64,000 bases of DNA from a virus (Duplodnaviria; Caudoviricetes): positions 1 through 64,000 of IMG/VR virus record IMGVR_UViG_3300046518_000260; one strand, given 5' to 3'. Position numbers and translations under genes: made by a program. The notes below the pieces were generated by a model, which made no database searches, was not told the origin of the DNA, and saw only the letters and a program-made list of their open reading frames with translations. Below are positions 15,858 through 33,939 of this stretch, in pieces. The stretch's first letter is position 1; the number at the start of each line of letters is the position of its first letter.

Positions 15858-16024
15858 CTATTTACGTGGCCCCTGGGACCTTCTTGCAGGCTGCTAGTTA
15901 ACTGATTTTCTAAAAGCTGAGAATTACAAACGCTCGGAGACGCGACGCCGCCCGCCCTCAGAAACCCGTTTGGAGTAGATTGGATTTAACTTAAATTTTA
16001 ATGATTAAAGTTTTAACGGTGCGA

Positions 16025-16088
16025 TTAACTAATTATTAAGGTTAATAAGGGGTTAACGGTGCCTGATTGTTGGTTAATGAATGGTTAA
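16025..16088. promoter_or_regulatory. three CtrA-consensus boxes
   Basis: TTAA-N7-TTAA at 16025, 16042, 16074. Confidence 0.7.
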
Positions 16089-16462
16089 TAAGCGCTGGAT
16101 TTAAAATGTTTAAAGAAACGTTTAAAGTTTTAAGTTGCATAACAGGCATTATGGAACCATAGCGTTTTAGTGGGCTATTAAGCCATGCCATAGAGCCGCC
16201 ATACAAGGCCGTGGGCGCGTGGTTAGGGGTTAGGCTAGGGTAGTAGCTGGTAGGCACGGCATGCGCATGGGACAGGCTGCTAAGTGCCTCTGTTTACGTT
16301 ATCTTTGTGCTTGGTAGGCGGGTTGTTAGAACGGCGGTAAAAGGCCCGTTGACCGAGGATCGATAGTATATATTGGGTGCGCAGGTAATTTGCCGAGAGT
16401 GAGATGCAGAAGTCAGGGTTAAATGCGTCTCCCCAAGTATACTTGCCGGGCTCGCGCGCCGA

Positions 16463-16471
16463 TTATCCACA
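16463..16471 (+). promoter_or_regulatory. perfect DnaA box
   Basis: TTATCCACA in a 1-kb non-coding island; single copy only. Confidence 0.4.
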
Positions 16472-16824
16472 ACGCCACAACAAACTGGAGTTTAAGCGGG
16501 GTCCGATCTACCATGCGAAATATAGCCTGTATATTAGCAATGGTTAATACGTTCACATTTACAAATTTGAGGGCAGTTCCACAAGGTGGTATAAATATAT
16601 TTCTTCTTAATTATAATACTACTATACCTAACTAAATAAAAAGTTGCTCTCTCTATATATGAGAAAGTATTTATATACGAACCTATACCTTGCAGGTTGT
16701 AATTCATTCCTTTCTAAGCCTTTGCTTTTGTTGGGTTCCTTGGTCCACGGGCCACGCACAAAGTTGTGTTCACTTTTTTTACCCGCATAGGTTCGCGCGG
16801 CCAAACCGCCCAAAAAGGCCAACT

Positions 16825-19195: not shown

Positions 19196-19624
19196 TTATA
19201 GGCCGGGCTGCATGCCGGGCCACCATGCGCTACCAAAGCCGCCCTCCGGCTTTAGAAATTCCCGGGCTGCCAGCATAAAATCCAACGGGCAAGCGCCGGT
19301 AAATTCCAAGTTGTTAAATTCGGGCGCAACCTGCATGCTTTTCGCAGTTAACCCGCTGCCGCGCCAACGCATTGCGCCGTTCTGCATATAGCCGTGCATT
19401 TGCACCTTGCCAAATTCGCCAAACGTGTTGCGGCTACGGCTGCCATCGTTGCGGGTTTGGCCGAACCAAACGTCCAACGTTACAAAGCTACCATAGTCGC
19501 ATGCGCGTATGGTTACGTTGCCATCTTCACGCACGGCCACCAACGTTGCGCGCGCGTTGGTTTCGTGGGCAACCGTTACCGGGCGCAGGTCCGGTATTGC
19601 CGCCACCAAGTTCTGAAATTCCAT
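19196..19624 (-). CDS. hypothetical protein
   Basis: 142 aa, GGGAG SD, own promoter. Confidence 0.75.
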   Translation of the reverse strand: MEFQNLVAAIPDLRPVTVAHETNARATLVAVREDGNVTIRACDYGSFVTLDVWFGQTRNDGSRSRNTFGEFGKVQMHGYMQNGAMRWRGSGLTAKSMQVAPEFNNLEFTGACPLDFMLAAREFLKPEGGFGSAWWPGMQPGL

Positions 19625-19680: not shown

Positions 19681-19719
19681 GCCCCTATTTCGCGCTTAGC
19701 AAGCGCCTTGGGGCCATGG

Positions 19720-19735
19720 TTAATTTTCAGTTAAC
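19720..19735. promoter_or_regulatory. CtrA-consensus box
   Basis: TTAA-TTTTCAG-TTAAC. Confidence 0.7.
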
Positions 19736-20560: not shown

Positions 20561-20758
20561 TTAGCCCTTTGCTGCGTTGTCAGCCGCAATGGCGGCTTCG
20601 TTGCGGTCCATTACCATACCCTTAATCCACTCGCGGTTGCAATTCATGTAACCGGTTGCATCTACGCGGCGGTAAAAGTCGTTGGTGTTAAGCAGGTCGT
20701 GTTCGCGGGTGGCGGGGTTCCATACCAGCCCGGTAACAGTCCAAATTGCCTTGTCCAT
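20561..20758 (-). CDS. hypothetical protein
   Basis: 65 aa from MDKAIW, GAGAGGG SD. Confidence 0.7.
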   Translation of the reverse strand: MDKAIWTVTGLVWNPATREHDLLNTNDFYRRVDATGYMNCNREWIKGMVMDRNEAAIAADNAAKG

Positions 20759-20791: not shown

Positions 20792-20819
20792 ATTATACTG
20801 ATATCCCAAGCCCGGTAAA
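20792..20819 (-). promoter_or_regulatory. early promoter
   Basis: TTTACC-N16-TATAAT. Confidence 0.6.
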
Positions 20820-20839
20820 GCCGCCTCTTGGGGCCATGG

Positions 20840-21044
20840 TTAACGGGCCGATAACGATCGTCCTTAATAAACATGGTTAACGCCGCCTTAGCGATCGCCC
20901 CGCGTTAACCTTAATTCTTTACCTTAACAGATCGTTAACATTAACCTTTCATTAACCTTATCAATTAAGGTTAACGGGCCGTTAATATTAATCATCTGTT
21001 AACCATATTCGTTAACGTTAACAAGCGGTTAACGCAATCGTTAA
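20840..21044. repeat. 47-bp-period degenerate tandem array of CtrA-consensus boxes
   Basis: Units start 20877, 20924, 20971, 21018; perfect TTAA-N7-TTAA at 20924, 20941, 20971, 20988, 21018. Confidence 0.85.
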
Positions 21045-21139
21045 AATGCAACTCACCGCTCTGCGCCGCCCTCCGCCGGTCGCCAGCTTAGGCTGGCGCA
21101 CAACCGGCTGGCAGCGCCGCCGTACAGGCATGCGCGCCC

Positions 21140-21174
21140 GGCTGATATATAGCGCTAGGGTAATCTAGATACAG
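21140..21174. repeat. conserved box, copy 1
   Basis: GGCTGATATATAGCGCTAGGGTAATCTAGATACAG; similar to 32903-32935. Confidence 0.7.
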
Positions 21175-21343
21175 GTAACGTCAGAATATACTCACACATA
21201 ACTTTGACCATGGCGCGCTCAGCCTCAGAGGCACGCTCCAGCGCTTCCGCCACCTTGGGAGGTGCTACGGTAGCCGCGCGCCACTCTGCCGTTCTAAGGG
21301 CTCCTACGGCGCTTTCAAGCCTAAACAATATATCCTGTTTCAT
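21155..21343 (-). CDS. hypothetical protein
   Basis: 62 aa, AGGT SD. Confidence 0.6.
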   Translation of the reverse strand: MKQDILFRLESAVGALRTAEWRAATVAPPKVAEALERASEAERAMVKVMCEYILTLPVSRLP

Positions 21344-21354
21344 GCTGCACCTAC

Positions 21355-21454
21355 AAAATCAGACCGGCCATCATCCCCGCAGGAAATCAGACCGGCCACT
21401 TGGTTTCAGGAATATCGGACCGGCCACCCATGCGGGGGAATATCGGACCGGTCA
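21355..21454. repeat. 28-nt-period direct-repeat array (4 units)
   Basis: RAA(T)ATCRGACCGGYCA at 21355, 21383, 21410, 21438 with variable 11-12 nt spacers. Confidence 0.9.
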
Positions 21455-22754: not shown

Positions 22755-23135
22755 TCAGCGTACCAGCATCTTCAAAATCTTCATCATGTCGCGGTCAAAC
22801 TTCTCGCCGTCGGTCAACACCCGACGCGGCTTGCGTTCGCGGTCATGAATGTATTCGCGAATAAGTTCGCGGTCTTTCAGGTCACGGGCAATCTGCCGGG
22901 CGGCTTCTTCCTTGCGGCGCTGTTCGGTTTCAGCGTTGCCTTCCGCCAGCTTTTCAGCAATCTCGTGCTGCCGGGCTGCGTAGGTTTCCAGCTCGCCCAA
23001 TGCCAGCTTAGCCCGGTTGGTCAGCATTACCAGCGGCACGCCATTATCTTCAGCCACGCTGGCAAGTGCCACTTTGGGGTCGGTCCCGTTCAGCAGTTCA
23101 GCCTTAACGTCTTCAATCGCTGTAAGAATGTCCAT
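22755..23135 (-). CDS. hypothetical protein
   Basis: AAGGAG SD, MDILTAIE...; promoter TTGCGT-N16-TATGGT at 23161-23188. Confidence 0.75.
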   Translation of the reverse strand: MDILTAIEDVKAELLNGTDPKVALASVAEDNGVPLVMLTNRAKLALGELETYAARQHEIAEKLAEGNAETEQRRKEEAARQIARDLKDRELIREYIHDRERKPRRVLTDGEKFDRDMMKILKMLVR

Positions 23136-23211
23136 GTGCCTTGCTCCTTGTGTTGAAATCACCATACTGATTTCCACGGGCCACGCAACCGCAACCCTGA
23201 ACAATGGTTAA

Positions 23212-29391: not shown

Positions 29392-30366
29392 TTAGACCAG
29401 CTCGCCCGTGTAACCTGCCATCTGCAGCAAGTAGTCCTTAACGTCAAGCTTCACCTTGGCAAGTTGCCCGAAAGTGGAGTTTGTCAGCCGGGCTGCCGGG
29501 CTACGGCCTGCAACGTGGTCGGCGTAGTGGGTTACGCCATTCAGCAAGCCCCAAGCGTTTTCCGGGATTGCGCCCGGCGCTGAAACAACCGAGTGCAGCA
29601 CCTCAGCCAATACCGGGCTCTGTGCGTCTGGGTTGACCAGCAACATTTTCACGTCGCTGGCATGCTCGGCCATATCCGGCTGGAAGAACGTTGCCAGCGT
29701 CCGCACAGTGTCGTAAGCCGACATCTGCAGGCTGCTAAGCGCTTCGGCTTCCATCTTGTGGACAGCCACGCTTTCACGGGCAAAGGCAAACGTTTCCTTA
29801 GCCTTGGACATGTCAAAGTCCTTCATGTGGTTCTGCCGGTATTCGGTCGCGCCGCCACGGGCGTTTGCCATTGTCAGCGTATTCTGGCAAACCACGCGGA
29901 CCATTGTGGTCATGGCGCGGATTGATGAACCGGGCGCATGGCTGTTCGAAAGCAGCACATAGCCGTTCACAGTGTCACGGCCTTTCAGGGTAAAGCCCTT
30001 GTTGATGTTCGCCAGCGCCCAAATGGTCTTCCCGTCGTACAGGCTGCCAGCGGTTTCCAGCGTGGCGCTACCAGCGTCCACAAAGTCCCGGAAAAATTCC
30101 ATCAGCTCGGCGTTCTGGAAAGGCTTCCAGCCCGTCGAAGAAACCGAAAGAATGCGCTTGTCGGTGTCGCGGGTAACGGCAACCTTGTTCGGCACGGCAA
30201 CCTCTTCGTCGCCAATCTTCACGAACATCGGGTGCTGCGATACAGCCCAATCAAGGCCCGCTGCCTTGGTCATTTCTTCGATGGAAGCGCCCTGCTCCAG
30301 CTTGTTGCCAAGACCGTGCCACGGGGTTGCGCCAACGTATGCCATGGTTTCAACTTCTGCACTCAT
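29392..30366 (-). CDS. DUF932-family protein
   Basis: MAYVGATPWHGLG...AAGLDW...FQN...ETAGSLYDGK...LLSNSH...TMVRVVCQNTL; GGAG SD. Confidence 0.85.
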   Translation of the reverse strand: MSAEVETMAYVGATPWHGLGNKLEQGASIEEMTKAAGLDWAVSQHPMFVKIGDEEVAVPNKVAVTRDTDKRILSVSSTGWKPFQNAELMEFFRDFVDAGSATLETAGSLYDGKTIWALANINKGFTLKGRDTVNGYVLLSNSHAPGSSIRAMTTMVRVVCQNTLTMANARGGATEYRQNHMKDFDMSKAKETFAFARESVAVHKMEAEALSSLQMSAYDTVRTLATFFQPDMAEHASDVKMLLVNPDAQSPVLAEVLHSVVSAPGAIPENAWGLLNGVTHYADHVAGRSPAARLTNSTFGQLAKVKLDVKDYLLQMAGYTGELV

Positions 30367-30418: not shown

Positions 30419-30492
30419 AACCTAAACGAACATGTCAGGAAATGCAAGGCAGTTTGCCAAGGTTCGGCGGTAATAGTTAATGAAAAGTTAAC
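30419..30492 (-). promoter_or_regulatory. promoter with upstream CtrA-consensus box
   Basis: TTGCAT-N17-TAGGTT (30447-30419); TTAA-TGAAAAG-TTAAC at 30477. Confidence 0.6.
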
Positions 30493-31414: not shown

Positions 31415-32329
31415 TTACTTGGCCTTCTTGTCAGCGGCAGCCTTGTCGGCAGCGACGGCGGCTTCGGAAGCAGCCTTGTCAGCGGCAGCCTTTTCGTCGG
31501 CAGCGGCCTTGTCGGCAATCTTCTTGTCTTCCTTGGCCTTCTTGTCGGCGTCAGCCTTGGTCTTCTTTTCGAGATCGGCAGCGTCCTTTTCGGCCTTCTT
31601 CTTGGCCTTGGCTTCTTCTTCAGCCTTGGCCTTTTCGCCGGCGACGGCTTCGGCACTGACGCGGGCTGCATCGAGGGCAGCAATCTCGGCAGCGCGCTCT
31701 TCAGGCGTTGCGCCAGTCAGGAACACGATGTTGCCCTTGTCCAAGTCGTACTGCAAGTCCACGTAACGACCGCCACCCGACTTCGTCAGGTATTCCTCGG
31801 TCGTGCAACCCGGATTTGCAATGATGTATTGCAAGGCATTGATGCCGACGCCCGTGCCGCCAATTCGGCGGCCGTTCAGGGCAGCGCCGGACCGTGCATA
31901 AAACTTGTTGGAAAGCGGCGAAGAACGGCCTTCGGCGGCTGCCTTGTTGGCCTTTTCCTTCGCAGGCTTCTTGGTCTTCAGCGCCGAAGCAAGCTTTTCG
32001 GTTTCGCTGGAACCGGCAGCCGGTGCAGCCTTCATGGAAGCCGCAACTTCCGTCAGCTTTTCAGCAAGCGCAGCCGAACCGATCTTGCGGTCCTTGAAAC
32101 CGGCAACCTTCTTCGGCGCAATCTTGTTGTACGCCTCGACGATCGATGCCAGCGTAATTTCGTTGTCTTCGGCAATGCCTTCAGCCGTGGTGATCGGTGC
32201 CTTGTCCGGGAAAGCCGTGGTAAAGCCGTCCTTGCCGTCAAGTTCGAGGAAGGCGCGAATTTTGACGCCATCCCAAGCTACGAAAAATGCTGCCGTTGCT
32301 GCCGCTGCCGTCGTTACGATATCATTCAT
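31415..32329 (-). CDS. protein with wHTH-like core and Lys/Ala-rich histone-H1-like tail
   Basis: GGAG SD before MNDIV; AKKKAEKDAAD...DKAAADKKAK; promoter TTGCAA-N16-TATAAG at 32417-32390. Confidence 0.75.
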   Translation of the reverse strand: MNDIVTTAAAATAAFFVAWDGVKIRAFLELDGKDGFTTAFPDKAPITTAEGIAEDNEITLASIVEAYNKIAPKKVAGFKDRKIGSAALAEKLTEVAASMKAAPAAGSSETEKLASALKTKKPAKEKANKAAAEGRSSPLSNKFYARSGAALNGRRIGGTGVGINALQYIIANPGCTTEEYLTKSGGGRYVDLQYDLDKGNIVFLTGATPEERAAEIAALDAARVSAEAVAGEKAKAEEEAKAKKKAEKDAADLEKKTKADADKKAKEDKKIADKAAADEKAAADKAASEAAVAADKAAADKKAK

Positions 32330-32539
32330 TGCCGTTACTCCGTTGGGTTTGGTTTGATTTGTCGGCCTCGTTTGCCGCCGATGACCATACTTATAATCCA
32401 TTCTCCGAACATTGCAAACGAAAAAATGGCCTCGGGCAAATTTTTCAGCAACTTTGGCCTAAGCCTTTGTTTTTGTTCGCATAAAACTTCACTCCCCTGC
32501 ATTTGCCACACGGCCCACGGCCCCAAAGTGACGGGCTAC

Positions 32540-32795
32540 ACTCTATATATACATGAGAGCTGATATTTAAAATTGTTCATAATTTTATGTAAAATACAAC
32601 CATTGGGGAATTAAGTAAAATTGTAGAAATAGTTTAATGAAAGTTTTATCATTTACAGATTGTCTAAAACTTTATCAATTATGATTTAAGTAAAAGTTTA
32701 TCAATTAAAGTTTATCTAAAATTGTATCAAACTGCCTTTTATTAAAATTGTATCTATCAACTATGTGGCATTTTATTAAAATGCAATCTATCAGC
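32540..32795. other. very AT-rich island with short iterated motifs (origin candidate)
   Basis: AAA(G/C/A)TT(T/G)(T)ATC at about 32640, 32667, 32693, 32707, 32718, 32744; 34-bp-period direct repeat at 32737/32771. Confidence 0.5.
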
Positions 32796-32902
32796 TTTTG
32801 CTGCGCCGCAGCACGGCCTTGCCGCCGCCCGGTTGCCGGGCCTGCCTCCCGCGAGCGGGCGAGCGCGGCGCACGGAGCGGGGAAACCGGGGCAGCGGCGC
32901 GC

Positions 32903-32935
32903 GGCTGATATAAAGCGCTGGGAAATTAGATACAG
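32903..32935. repeat. conserved box, copy 2
   Basis: GGCTGATATAAAGCGCTGGGAAATTAGATACAG. Confidence 0.7.
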
Positions 32936-33122
32936 TGAGCGATCAATGACCATGGATATTACTAGACGCAGCTCGGCCCGACGCACGGCTTCCGGGGTCC
33001 AAGGGGAATGTGAGCGTCGGGCCTAAATATATCTGGGCGTAATCCGCAACAGATGGTTCGCATGATGCTTCGGGTTCTATGGGCCTCACCTGACCTTTCT
33101 ATTGTCAGAGCAAACTTGGGGC

Positions 33123-33195
33123 AAAATCAGACCGGCCATTCTCTCCGGAGAAAATCAGACCGGCCATCGATCGCCAGGAAAATCAGACCGGCCAT
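33123..33195. repeat. 28-nt-period direct-repeat array (3 units)
   Basis: AAAATCAGACCGGCCAT exact at 33123, 33151, 33179 with unique 11-nt spacers. Confidence 0.95.
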
Positions 33196-33939
33196 TCAAG
33201 TTGAAACTTTATCGGCCACCAGCCCGGCAATCAGTTTCGCCTTGGCGGCTTTGAAGTCTTTTTCCCGTTCGCCGGAAACGACACCGTCAACCACACTCTG
33301 CGCTTCTGCGACAATGGCCCGGCATTCAAGCATGACGGAAACTTCAACTTCGCTGAGCACGAACTTGAAAACATTCTCCGGGATCGGCTCGTGGTAGTTG
33401 AACCTACCGCTGACTTCCCATGTCATTTCATAGTCGCCAGGATGCGCATAGGTAGTCGAAGATTTGGCAGGCTTCAACCGAGCAGGATCGTACTTTTTGA
33501 CCGGCTCAGCGATAGCATCCCAATCTACCACTAGAGGTTCAGGTTCAGGGGCGAACGGAGCTCTGTTCCATTCTTCCAATGCATAGTCCAGCGCTTCGGC
33601 GAAGTCGCGGGCCTTCTTGATCGCTCTGGTGTAATTGTTGATCTTGAAATCAGAGTTCAAGTTGACCGTAGCGATGATCGCTTTCCCGGTTAACGCCGCT
33701 CCAAGCTCGACGAGGGTGCCGCTATGTGCTTCACCCTGCTCGCGGAACAGAATGAAAATGTCACACTCGGCAGCTTCACTGATGCATGCTGCCCAAAGGT
33801 CGTCCCAATCGTGGGTGCTTCCGGGCTCAGCTTGATCGATCCAACTTGAAACGATCCTGAAACCGTCTGCACGCAGATCGCGCCAGCGCTGTGCCCATGT
33901 GGCCTTGCTCGCGATATAAATCTTTGGCCGCTTGTCCAT
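33196..33939 (-). CDS. nucleoside 2-deoxyribosyltransferase-like domain protein
   Basis: KIYIAS...SSWID...ISEAAECDIFILF...SGTLVELGAAL; GGAG SD. Confidence 0.65.
   Translation of the reverse strand: MDKRPKIYIASKATWAQRWRDLRADGFRIVSSWIDQAEPGSTHDWDDLWAACISEAAECDIFILFREQGEAHSGTLVELGAALTGKAIIATVNLNSDFKINNYTRAIKKARDFAEALDYALEEWNRAPFAPEPEPLVVDWDAIAEPVKKYDPARLKPAKSSTTYAHPGDYEMTWEVSGRFNYHEPIPENVFKFVLSEVEVSVMLECRAIVAEAQSVVDGVVSGEREKDFKAAKAKLIAGLVADKVST

Follow-up and report, generated by a model that had tools for sequence, protein, structure and literature searches.

A TTAA array with a 47-bp grammar in an uncultured 75-kb myophage resembles CtrA-binding DNA of phage Delta

The DNA analyzed here, referred to below as the window, comprises the first 64 kb of an uncultured virus record of 75,275 bp, which is rated complete and whose two ends overlap by 127 bp. 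Between about 39 kb and 1 kb, all genes are carried by the minus strand. The upper part of this run is an early block (39-16.6 kb) of many small genes, most of them without a family match. At its 3′ side comes a gene-free gap of roughly 770 bp (window 15858-16627), and beyond the gap, still on the minus strand, follow terS, a tail-fiber-like protein, virion proteins, TerL, and the portal. Within the early block, at 20840-21044, lies a non-coding array of TTAA words with a GC content of about 39%, no credible open reading frame, and no Rfam match. A sigma-70-like promoter, TTTACC-N16-TATAAT, is found beside it on the minus strand at 20792-20819; this promoter is close to consensus and its −10 hexamer is perfect. 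The nearest TTAA word of the array stands 20 nt upstream of the TTTACC −35 hexamer, with 16 nt between this hexamer and the end of the nearest upstream TTAACCAT. The first gene below the promoter (20561-20758, minus strand) encodes 65 aa, with an ATG at 20758 and a ribosome-binding site, and opens a run of small minus-strand genes of no annotated function, about eight more in number, that reaches about 16630.

The array holds 18 TTAA words in 205 bp, starting at 20840, 20864, 20877, 20905, 20911, 20924, 20935, 20941, 20952, 20965, 20971, 20982, 20988, 20999, 21012, 21018, 21029, and 21041, where about two would be expected (1.8 from the array's own base composition); the average of the window is 2.9 per kb. 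Perfect TTAA-N7-TTAA boxes start at five positions (20924, 20941, 20971, 20988, and 21018) and one-mismatch boxes at two more (20840 and 20877), with two pairs of perfect boxes standing 17 bp apart (20924/20941 and 20971/20988). From 20924 on, the gaps between successive TTAA starts run 11,6,11,13,6 / 11,6,11,13,6 / 11,12, and 47 bp is the most frequent distance among all TTAA pairs of the array (10 pairs). A preliminary description of this DNA had reported a dense TTAA array with five perfect and two near-perfect boxes, back-to-back pairs 17 bp apart, and a 47-bp period, and these counts bear it out on each point. It had also recognized four units sharing five TTAA positions, which is accurate for the units at 20924 and 20971 but overstated for the outer two, as the unit at 20877 retains TTAA at positions 1 and 29 and that at 21018 at positions 1 and 12. 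Its statement that the spacers have diverged holds in part: the two full units are identical at 20 of 20 box positions and at 13 of 27 spacer positions, so the spacers have drifted, but not down to random level.

The building block of the array can be described as a double box, with TTAA at 0/11/17/28, and a 15-bp linker with one extra TTAA joins successive double boxes. Module A (20924-20955) consists of two full boxes at a distance of 17 bp. Module B (20971-21002) follows 47 bp after it and includes TTAACCAT at 20999, and a single perfect box C (21018-21032) stands a further 47 bp on, with the TTAA at 21041 ending the array. On the promoter-proximal side, the two one-mismatch boxes (20836-20891, minus strand) each end in TTAACCAT on the minus strand, these half-sites lying at 20836 and 20873, 37 bp apart. 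The 11-6-11-13-6 grammar can be read on the minus strand too, from 20955 down to 20905, and the array is quasi-palindromic, without a clear polarity. Tandem Repeats Finder reported no 47-bp period for the array, because the units have little in common beyond the boxes. What the copies do share besides TTAA is a C after the word and CC-T/A-TA after the fourth word, and these extra positions fit an extended TTAAC or TTAACCAT preference. At 10.5 bp per turn, 47 bp corresponds to about 4.5 helical turns, so that successive units lie on opposite sides of the helix.

At its right end, the array contains a promoter-like site on the plus strand (TTAACA-N18-TAAAAT, 21018-21047), a consensus match only, which is directed away from genes. 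It is followed at 21045-21174 by a GC-rich block with a motif of roughly 35 bp and no special RNA fold. We rejected this block as a structured RNA or terminator, given its fold z-scores of −0.5 to +0.9, the lack of an Rfam match, and the lack of a terminator-like site. Likewise, a short open reading frame at 21046-21168, considered as a counterpart of DELTA_120, is arginine-rich, has neither a ribosome-binding site nor any similarity, and was judged non-coding. The region from 20840 to 21215 has a parallel at 32560-32960, each consisting of an AT-rich repeat array, a GC-rich block of ~100 bp, and the ~35-bp motif, which is found only at 21140 and 32903. The repeats are 26/13-bp iterons at 32560-32960 and the TTAA array at 20840-21215. 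Upstream of each module stands a 15-19-nt word with the core ATCRGACCGGYCA, repeated at an exact 28-bp pitch in four copies at 21356-21454 and three copies at 33123-33197; the genome has no further copies of this word, which one related contig (L043, below) also carries. The 32.6-kb module, kept in all three relatives, resembles a major control region or an origin.

The array belongs to a larger set of boxes. The window contains 13 perfect TTAA-N7-TTAA boxes against 0.58 expected, a number reached by none of 100 shuffles, and across the 75-kb genome (0.77 expected) all 13 are confined to the minus-strand early block, from 16.0 to 36.6 kb. Eleven of them lie within 16.0-21.0 kb, five inside 110 bp. 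The 16-28 kb interval has nine TTAACCAT half-sites on the gene strand, against about 1 expected, and at least six box sites have sigma-70-like hexamers 9-35 nt downstream. Examples outside the array are a full box ending in TTAACCAT (19716-19734, minus strand), upstream of a TTGCCA-N17-TATAAT promoter, and a single perfect box (30477-30491, minus strand) upstream of the promoter of a DUF932 gene, this box being kept in three related phages. A second TTAA cluster at 15975-16135 (16 TTAA in 220 bp, with perfect boxes at 16025, 16042, and 16074 that include a 17-bp pair) sits in the ~770-bp gap ahead of the minus-strand terS/structural/TerL/portal block. The same gap also holds a very AT-rich stretch at 16540-16700. 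Promoters at 18-28 kb, together with promoters of two relatives (L043 and L046), share not only the upstream TTAACCAT but also an extended spacer/−10 word, in which GAAATCAG precedes TA...T.

Normalized positional entropy, calculated over 50 bins, was 0.618 for perfect boxes and 0.608 for boxes with at most one mismatch (random expectation 0.96 and 0.88); these values are approximate, as our sites were defined by consensus and not by the scoring matrix of Mascolo et al. 2022 (PMC9437464), whose class cut-off is 0.75. By its sequence features, namely clustered sites, an entropy below the cut-off, and intergenic or promoter placement, the phage would fall into their low-positional-entropy class.

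Homologues of the DUF932 protein (29392-30366) occur at 61-71% identity on 74-76 kb contigs, and three of these relatives, L043, L045, and L046, were compared with the phage. All four share gene order over the stretch from 39 down to 27 kb, beyond which synteny breaks down. Each relative has 2-10 TTAACCAT on the gene strand, against about 0.15 expected, and these sites precede TTGCNN-N17-TA...T promoters. Conservation of boxes relative to spacers was assessed at the DUF932 promoter. Here the relatives keep the box, both promoter hexamers (−35 and −10), and the ribosome-binding site, and the intervening DNA has diverged, which is direct evidence that the boxes of this lineage are under selection. 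A search for an orthologous array at the corresponding position of L043, L045, and L046 was negative; the largest TTAA cluster of L043 lies upstream of the orthologue of 31415-32401 and not at the array position. Viral-contig searches with the flanking proteins 19196-19624 and 22755-23204, used singly, found no relatives.

Protein similarities place the phage in a 75-kb myophage lineage distantly related to flagellum-binding Agrobacterium phages. All nine matches of the tail-fiber-like protein are in Agrobacterium and Rhizobium phages, and it is 29-31% identical to its counterparts in the flagellotropic phages 7-7-1 and Milano, which are also matched by the baseplate protein and by an 82-aa early protein. 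The tail-fiber similarity is a hint that this phage may likewise attach to flagella or pili, as phages of the low-entropy class do. These two Agrobacterium phages are the nearest cultured relatives by protein, through the baseplate, the tail-fiber-like protein, and one early protein at 29-42% identity. The DUF932 protein is nearest to Aminobacter and Rhizobium phages.

The whole 75-kb genome lacks GANTC, the CcrM/HinfI site, of which about 290 copies would be expected, all four variants being absent; L043, L045, and L046 have 0, 1, and 0 copies against 78, 57, and 62 expected. This absence points to strong selection against a GANTC-reading host enzyme. Taken with the protein homologues, four of which are nearest Rhizobiales phages, it also points to an alphaproteobacterial host, one that would be expected to have CtrA. 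Counting against an alphaproteobacterial host, and with it the CtrA reading, the structural module also resembles Synechococcus phages. The 1.5-Mb assembly that holds the L043 contig contained no CtrA equivalog and no 16S gene; the GC mismatch (40-43% vs 56%) suggests mis-binning and not a true host, so that the assembly is uninformative and carries no weight either way. The first 50 kb of 7-7-1 hold one perfect box, no TTAACCAT, and only a mild GANTC depletion, and its entropy of 0.87 lies outside the low-entropy class (PMC9437464). The box trait is therefore specific to the lineage of the phage studied here.

A blastn search of about 50,700 phage records, with the array and its surroundings (4 kb) as query, matched the Brevundimonas phages Delta, BabaJaga, Fanboy, and Poludnitsa. 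These matches fall on the array alone, at 71-78% identity over 85-118 bp; the other matches are few, short, and elsewhere in the query. In the Delta-like phages the matched stretch lies inside a large gap between divergent gene blocks, and in all four the TTAA gaps run 13,6,11,6,11,13,6,11, the same grammar as in the array. The array aligns to the Delta stretch without gaps and in the same TTAA register. Clusters of CtrA sites in phages of Alphaproteobacteria were described, with the term "lytic deferment," by Mascolo et al. 2022 (PMC9437464), and the matched Delta region is one of the clusters in that study. Moreover, the Delta stretch that aligns to the array is the 81-bp EMSA probe of the same work (PMC9437464, supplementary file 16), which was shifted with phosphorylated Caulobacter CtrA, and a ctrA-ts strain gave 4.5- to 6-fold derepression of a Delta reporter (PMC9437464). 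The authors proposed that such phages sense host CtrA to time their lytic program, and reported several independent origins of the CtrA-site trait (PMC9437464); a second paper found that Jorvik infection requires host ctrA. The idea of a delayed-lysis switch put forward in the preliminary description is thus the published lytic-deferment hypothesis and not a new one, and the array is a further example of an already described phage element. Its reading of the words as CtrA boxes is well supported, both by the ungapped, same-register alignment to a CtrA~P-binding probe and by the phage-wide, promoter-adjacent boxes. It had further taken the array geometry to be undescribed. The text of PMC9437464 is indeed silent on spacing, as it is on cooperativity, but its own probe, like several other phages, has the same grammar.

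The two elements share a dense array of TTAA and TTAA-N7-TTAA in non-coding DNA with identical 11-6-11-13-6 gaps, and strong GANTC under-representation is common to this phage and the Delta-like phages, being found in pieces of the latter. In other respects they are quite different. Delta, a phage of Caulobacterales, is a siphophage of 87 kb, whereas the phage described here is an unrelated 75-kb myophage, and no proteins in common were detected between them. Delta has 30 TTAA in a 1.3-kb gap between divergent blocks, as opposed to 18 in a ~400-bp gap between co-directional genes. The Delta promoter lies within its array, while here a clear promoter lies outside it and there are many further single-box promoters. 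In the phiCbK-like phages, Sphingomonas phage MMDA13, and Rhizobium phages Palo and Pasto, boxes are likewise concentrated regionally and near promoters, but their clusters stand in terminal repeats or large gaps and are mostly single sites. The MMDA13 repeats contain GTTAACCAT, and the phiCbK and Cp1R7A-A1 sites are CtrA-activated (PMC9437464). None of these phages (phiCbK-like, MMDA13, Palo, or Pasto) was matched in the blastn search around the array.

Multi-site promoters of the OmpR family include the ompF/ompC sites, the pho boxes, and the Caulobacter pilA and origin CtrA sites, and their sites are either contiguous in helical phase, in 10-11 bp repeats, or widely spaced. By analogy, the array may share with these promoters the use of adjacent sites whose hierarchical or cooperative occupancy sets a threshold. 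The array differs from them in that its dimer sites are spaced alternately by 17 and 30 bp, which puts neighboring sites on different sides of the helix, and a comparison with in-phase sites found no constant half-site spacing of 10-11 bp (gaps 11,6,11,13,6).

Taken together, these data make it likely that host CtrA~P binds the array and controls the adjacent promoter, within a phage-wide set of CtrA boxes. In this model, the array would be a multi-site docking platform for phosphorylated host CtrA, about 55 to 260 bp upstream of the sigma-70-type promoter that would drive the small minus-strand genes. It would form the largest node of a box set that also covers the single-box early promoters and the cluster at the packaging and structural block, and the set as a whole would couple phage transcription and the progress of infection to the level of host CtrA~P, that is, to the cell-cycle or motility state of the cell. 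This type of control would amount to lytic deferment, as proposed for other alphaproteobacterial phages. The extra double boxes could sharpen the response of the leftward promoter, and CtrA binding to the array would be cooperative.

As to the sign of the effect, we lean slightly toward activation of the leftward promoter, because the proximal box is placed as it is at the single-box promoters, upstream of the −35. Repression, as measured for Delta, is nearly as likely, being suggested by the Delta precedent and by the near-consensus promoter, which is unusual for activator-dependent control and counts against CtrA activation. Two further points count against control of the promoter in general: the array is absent from the same position in L043, and its roughly nine dimer sites are more than simple promoter control needs.

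The grammar itself is not confined to this phage and the Delta group. Searching for one full unit as an exact pattern with 24 fixed bases returned 4 IMG/VR contigs and 31 metagenome contigs; about a dozen of the latter are of intermediate GC content with TTAAC-rich arrays, and some, for example L021, hold several 47-bp units. The same pattern had four matches in about 186,000 prokaryote species genomes (one genome each), in archaeal metagenome-assembled genomes, Campylobacter, and a Bacteroidales metagenome-assembled genome, three of the four being AT-rich, and none in the alphaproteobacterial species among them. Altogether the grammar is present in about ten unrelated types of uncultured phage contig, which have essentially no proteins in common with the phage. 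Four other uncultured phage contigs carry TTAA arrays that use the same set of gaps (6, 7, 11, 13) in other orders, with periods of, for example, 17 or 60 bp (L005 10790-11200, L007 5030-5230, L013, and L038); in L005 and L007, further short tandem repeats of other kinds flank the array. A bolder proposal, which we regard as doubtful, is that the 47-bp unit, a double box with its linker TTAA, is a phage-specific CtrA super-site, missing from bacterial chromosomes and exchanged among or convergent in at least ten unrelated phage lineages. It would act as a cooperative, high-capacity CtrA~P trap or sensor that, with the multiplication of phage genomes, rewires the host cell cycle instead of only controlling one promoter.

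Related to this proposal is the possibility, raised as a decoy in the preliminary description, that arrays of this kind mainly serve as a sink, binding up CtrA~P during phage DNA replication, lowering its free level, and pushing the host toward a replication-permissive, non-motile state, with any effect on the promoter being secondary. Such titration is physically plausible, and it would account for a number of sites beyond the need of one promoter, for the second cluster at 15975-16135, and for the occurrence of the 47-bp grammar in so many unrelated phage contigs, the few and non-alphaproteobacterial matches among prokaryote genomes making it look phage-specific. We nevertheless think it unlikely, as the boxes keep a set position with respect to promoters, both in this phage and in the related ones, which argues for regulation in cis, and the Delta array acts on a reporter in cis. 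Furthermore, L043, a close relative, has no dense array at the same position, and titration was neither proposed nor tested in the literature searched.

It is improbable, in our view, that the boxes are read by something other than CtrA, such as a novel phage DNA-binding protein, SciP, a nucleoid protein, or another host factor. Tan and co-workers are said to have linked TTAACCAT to SciP as well in 2010, the early block offers many genes without a family match that could encode a reader, the units have conserved positions beyond TTAA, and the 6- and 13-bp gaps are not canonical CtrA spacings. Set against this, DNA with the same grammar from Delta binds purified CtrA~P, and no OmpR-type Trans_reg_C, GcrA, DUF1153 (SciP), or ROS_MUCR domain was matched in the phage proteins, nor was a phage-encoded CtrA or N6/N4 methyltransferase found. 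The array-bearing phages also have no proteins in common with this one; the sole shared product, the 82-aa open reading frame, occurs in 7-7-1 and Milano and not in the Delta-like phages, and 7-7-1 has its homologue yet is without the box set. With no reader gene of the CtrA type and with unrelated contigs bearing the array, a shared host factor is the simplest reader, and CtrA is the one for which there is direct evidence, from the Delta DNA.

A role as a replication origin, or as a CtrA-gated origin-like element of the kind found at the Caulobacter chromosome origin, seems very improbable. It would draw on the parallel module at 32.56-32.95 kb, which is conserved in the relatives and looks origin-like, since the array fills the slot that the 26-bp iterons take there and also adjoins a GC-rich block and the 35-bp motif. 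Within 20800-21100, however, there is no DnaA box (at most one mismatch), and the single perfect DnaA box at 16463 is within chance. An array with a GC content of about 39% is not a clear unwinding element, no initiator gene is adjacent, and GC skew tracks gene direction only. Finally, if the array were the decaying remains of a tandemly duplicated single-box promoter region, functional only in the proximal box, this could explain the 48% spacer identity between units and the lack of positional conservation in L043, but such a reading is scarcely credible when 20 of 20 box positions are kept between the full units despite spacer drift and unrelated phages maintain the same grammar.

If host CtrA~P does control the promoter next to the array, these results extend CtrA-based phage control, so far described in only a few phages in culture, to a 75-kb myophage lineage that is uncultured, and add another apparently independent origin of the CtrA-box strategy. 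It is plausible that the layout common to the Delta probe and the array is the functional unit for cooperative CtrA binding. Its box set and its complete loss of GANTC make the phage look finely adjusted to the cell-cycle circuit of Alphaproteobacteria. The new points are modest, namely the conserved 47-bp grammar and its association with total GANTC avoidance, and the advance is incremental, with no new type of system. Besides GANTC, two homopolymeric words are also scarce in the whole genome, CCCCC occurring once where 116 copies would be expected and GGGGG five times where 95 would be expected.
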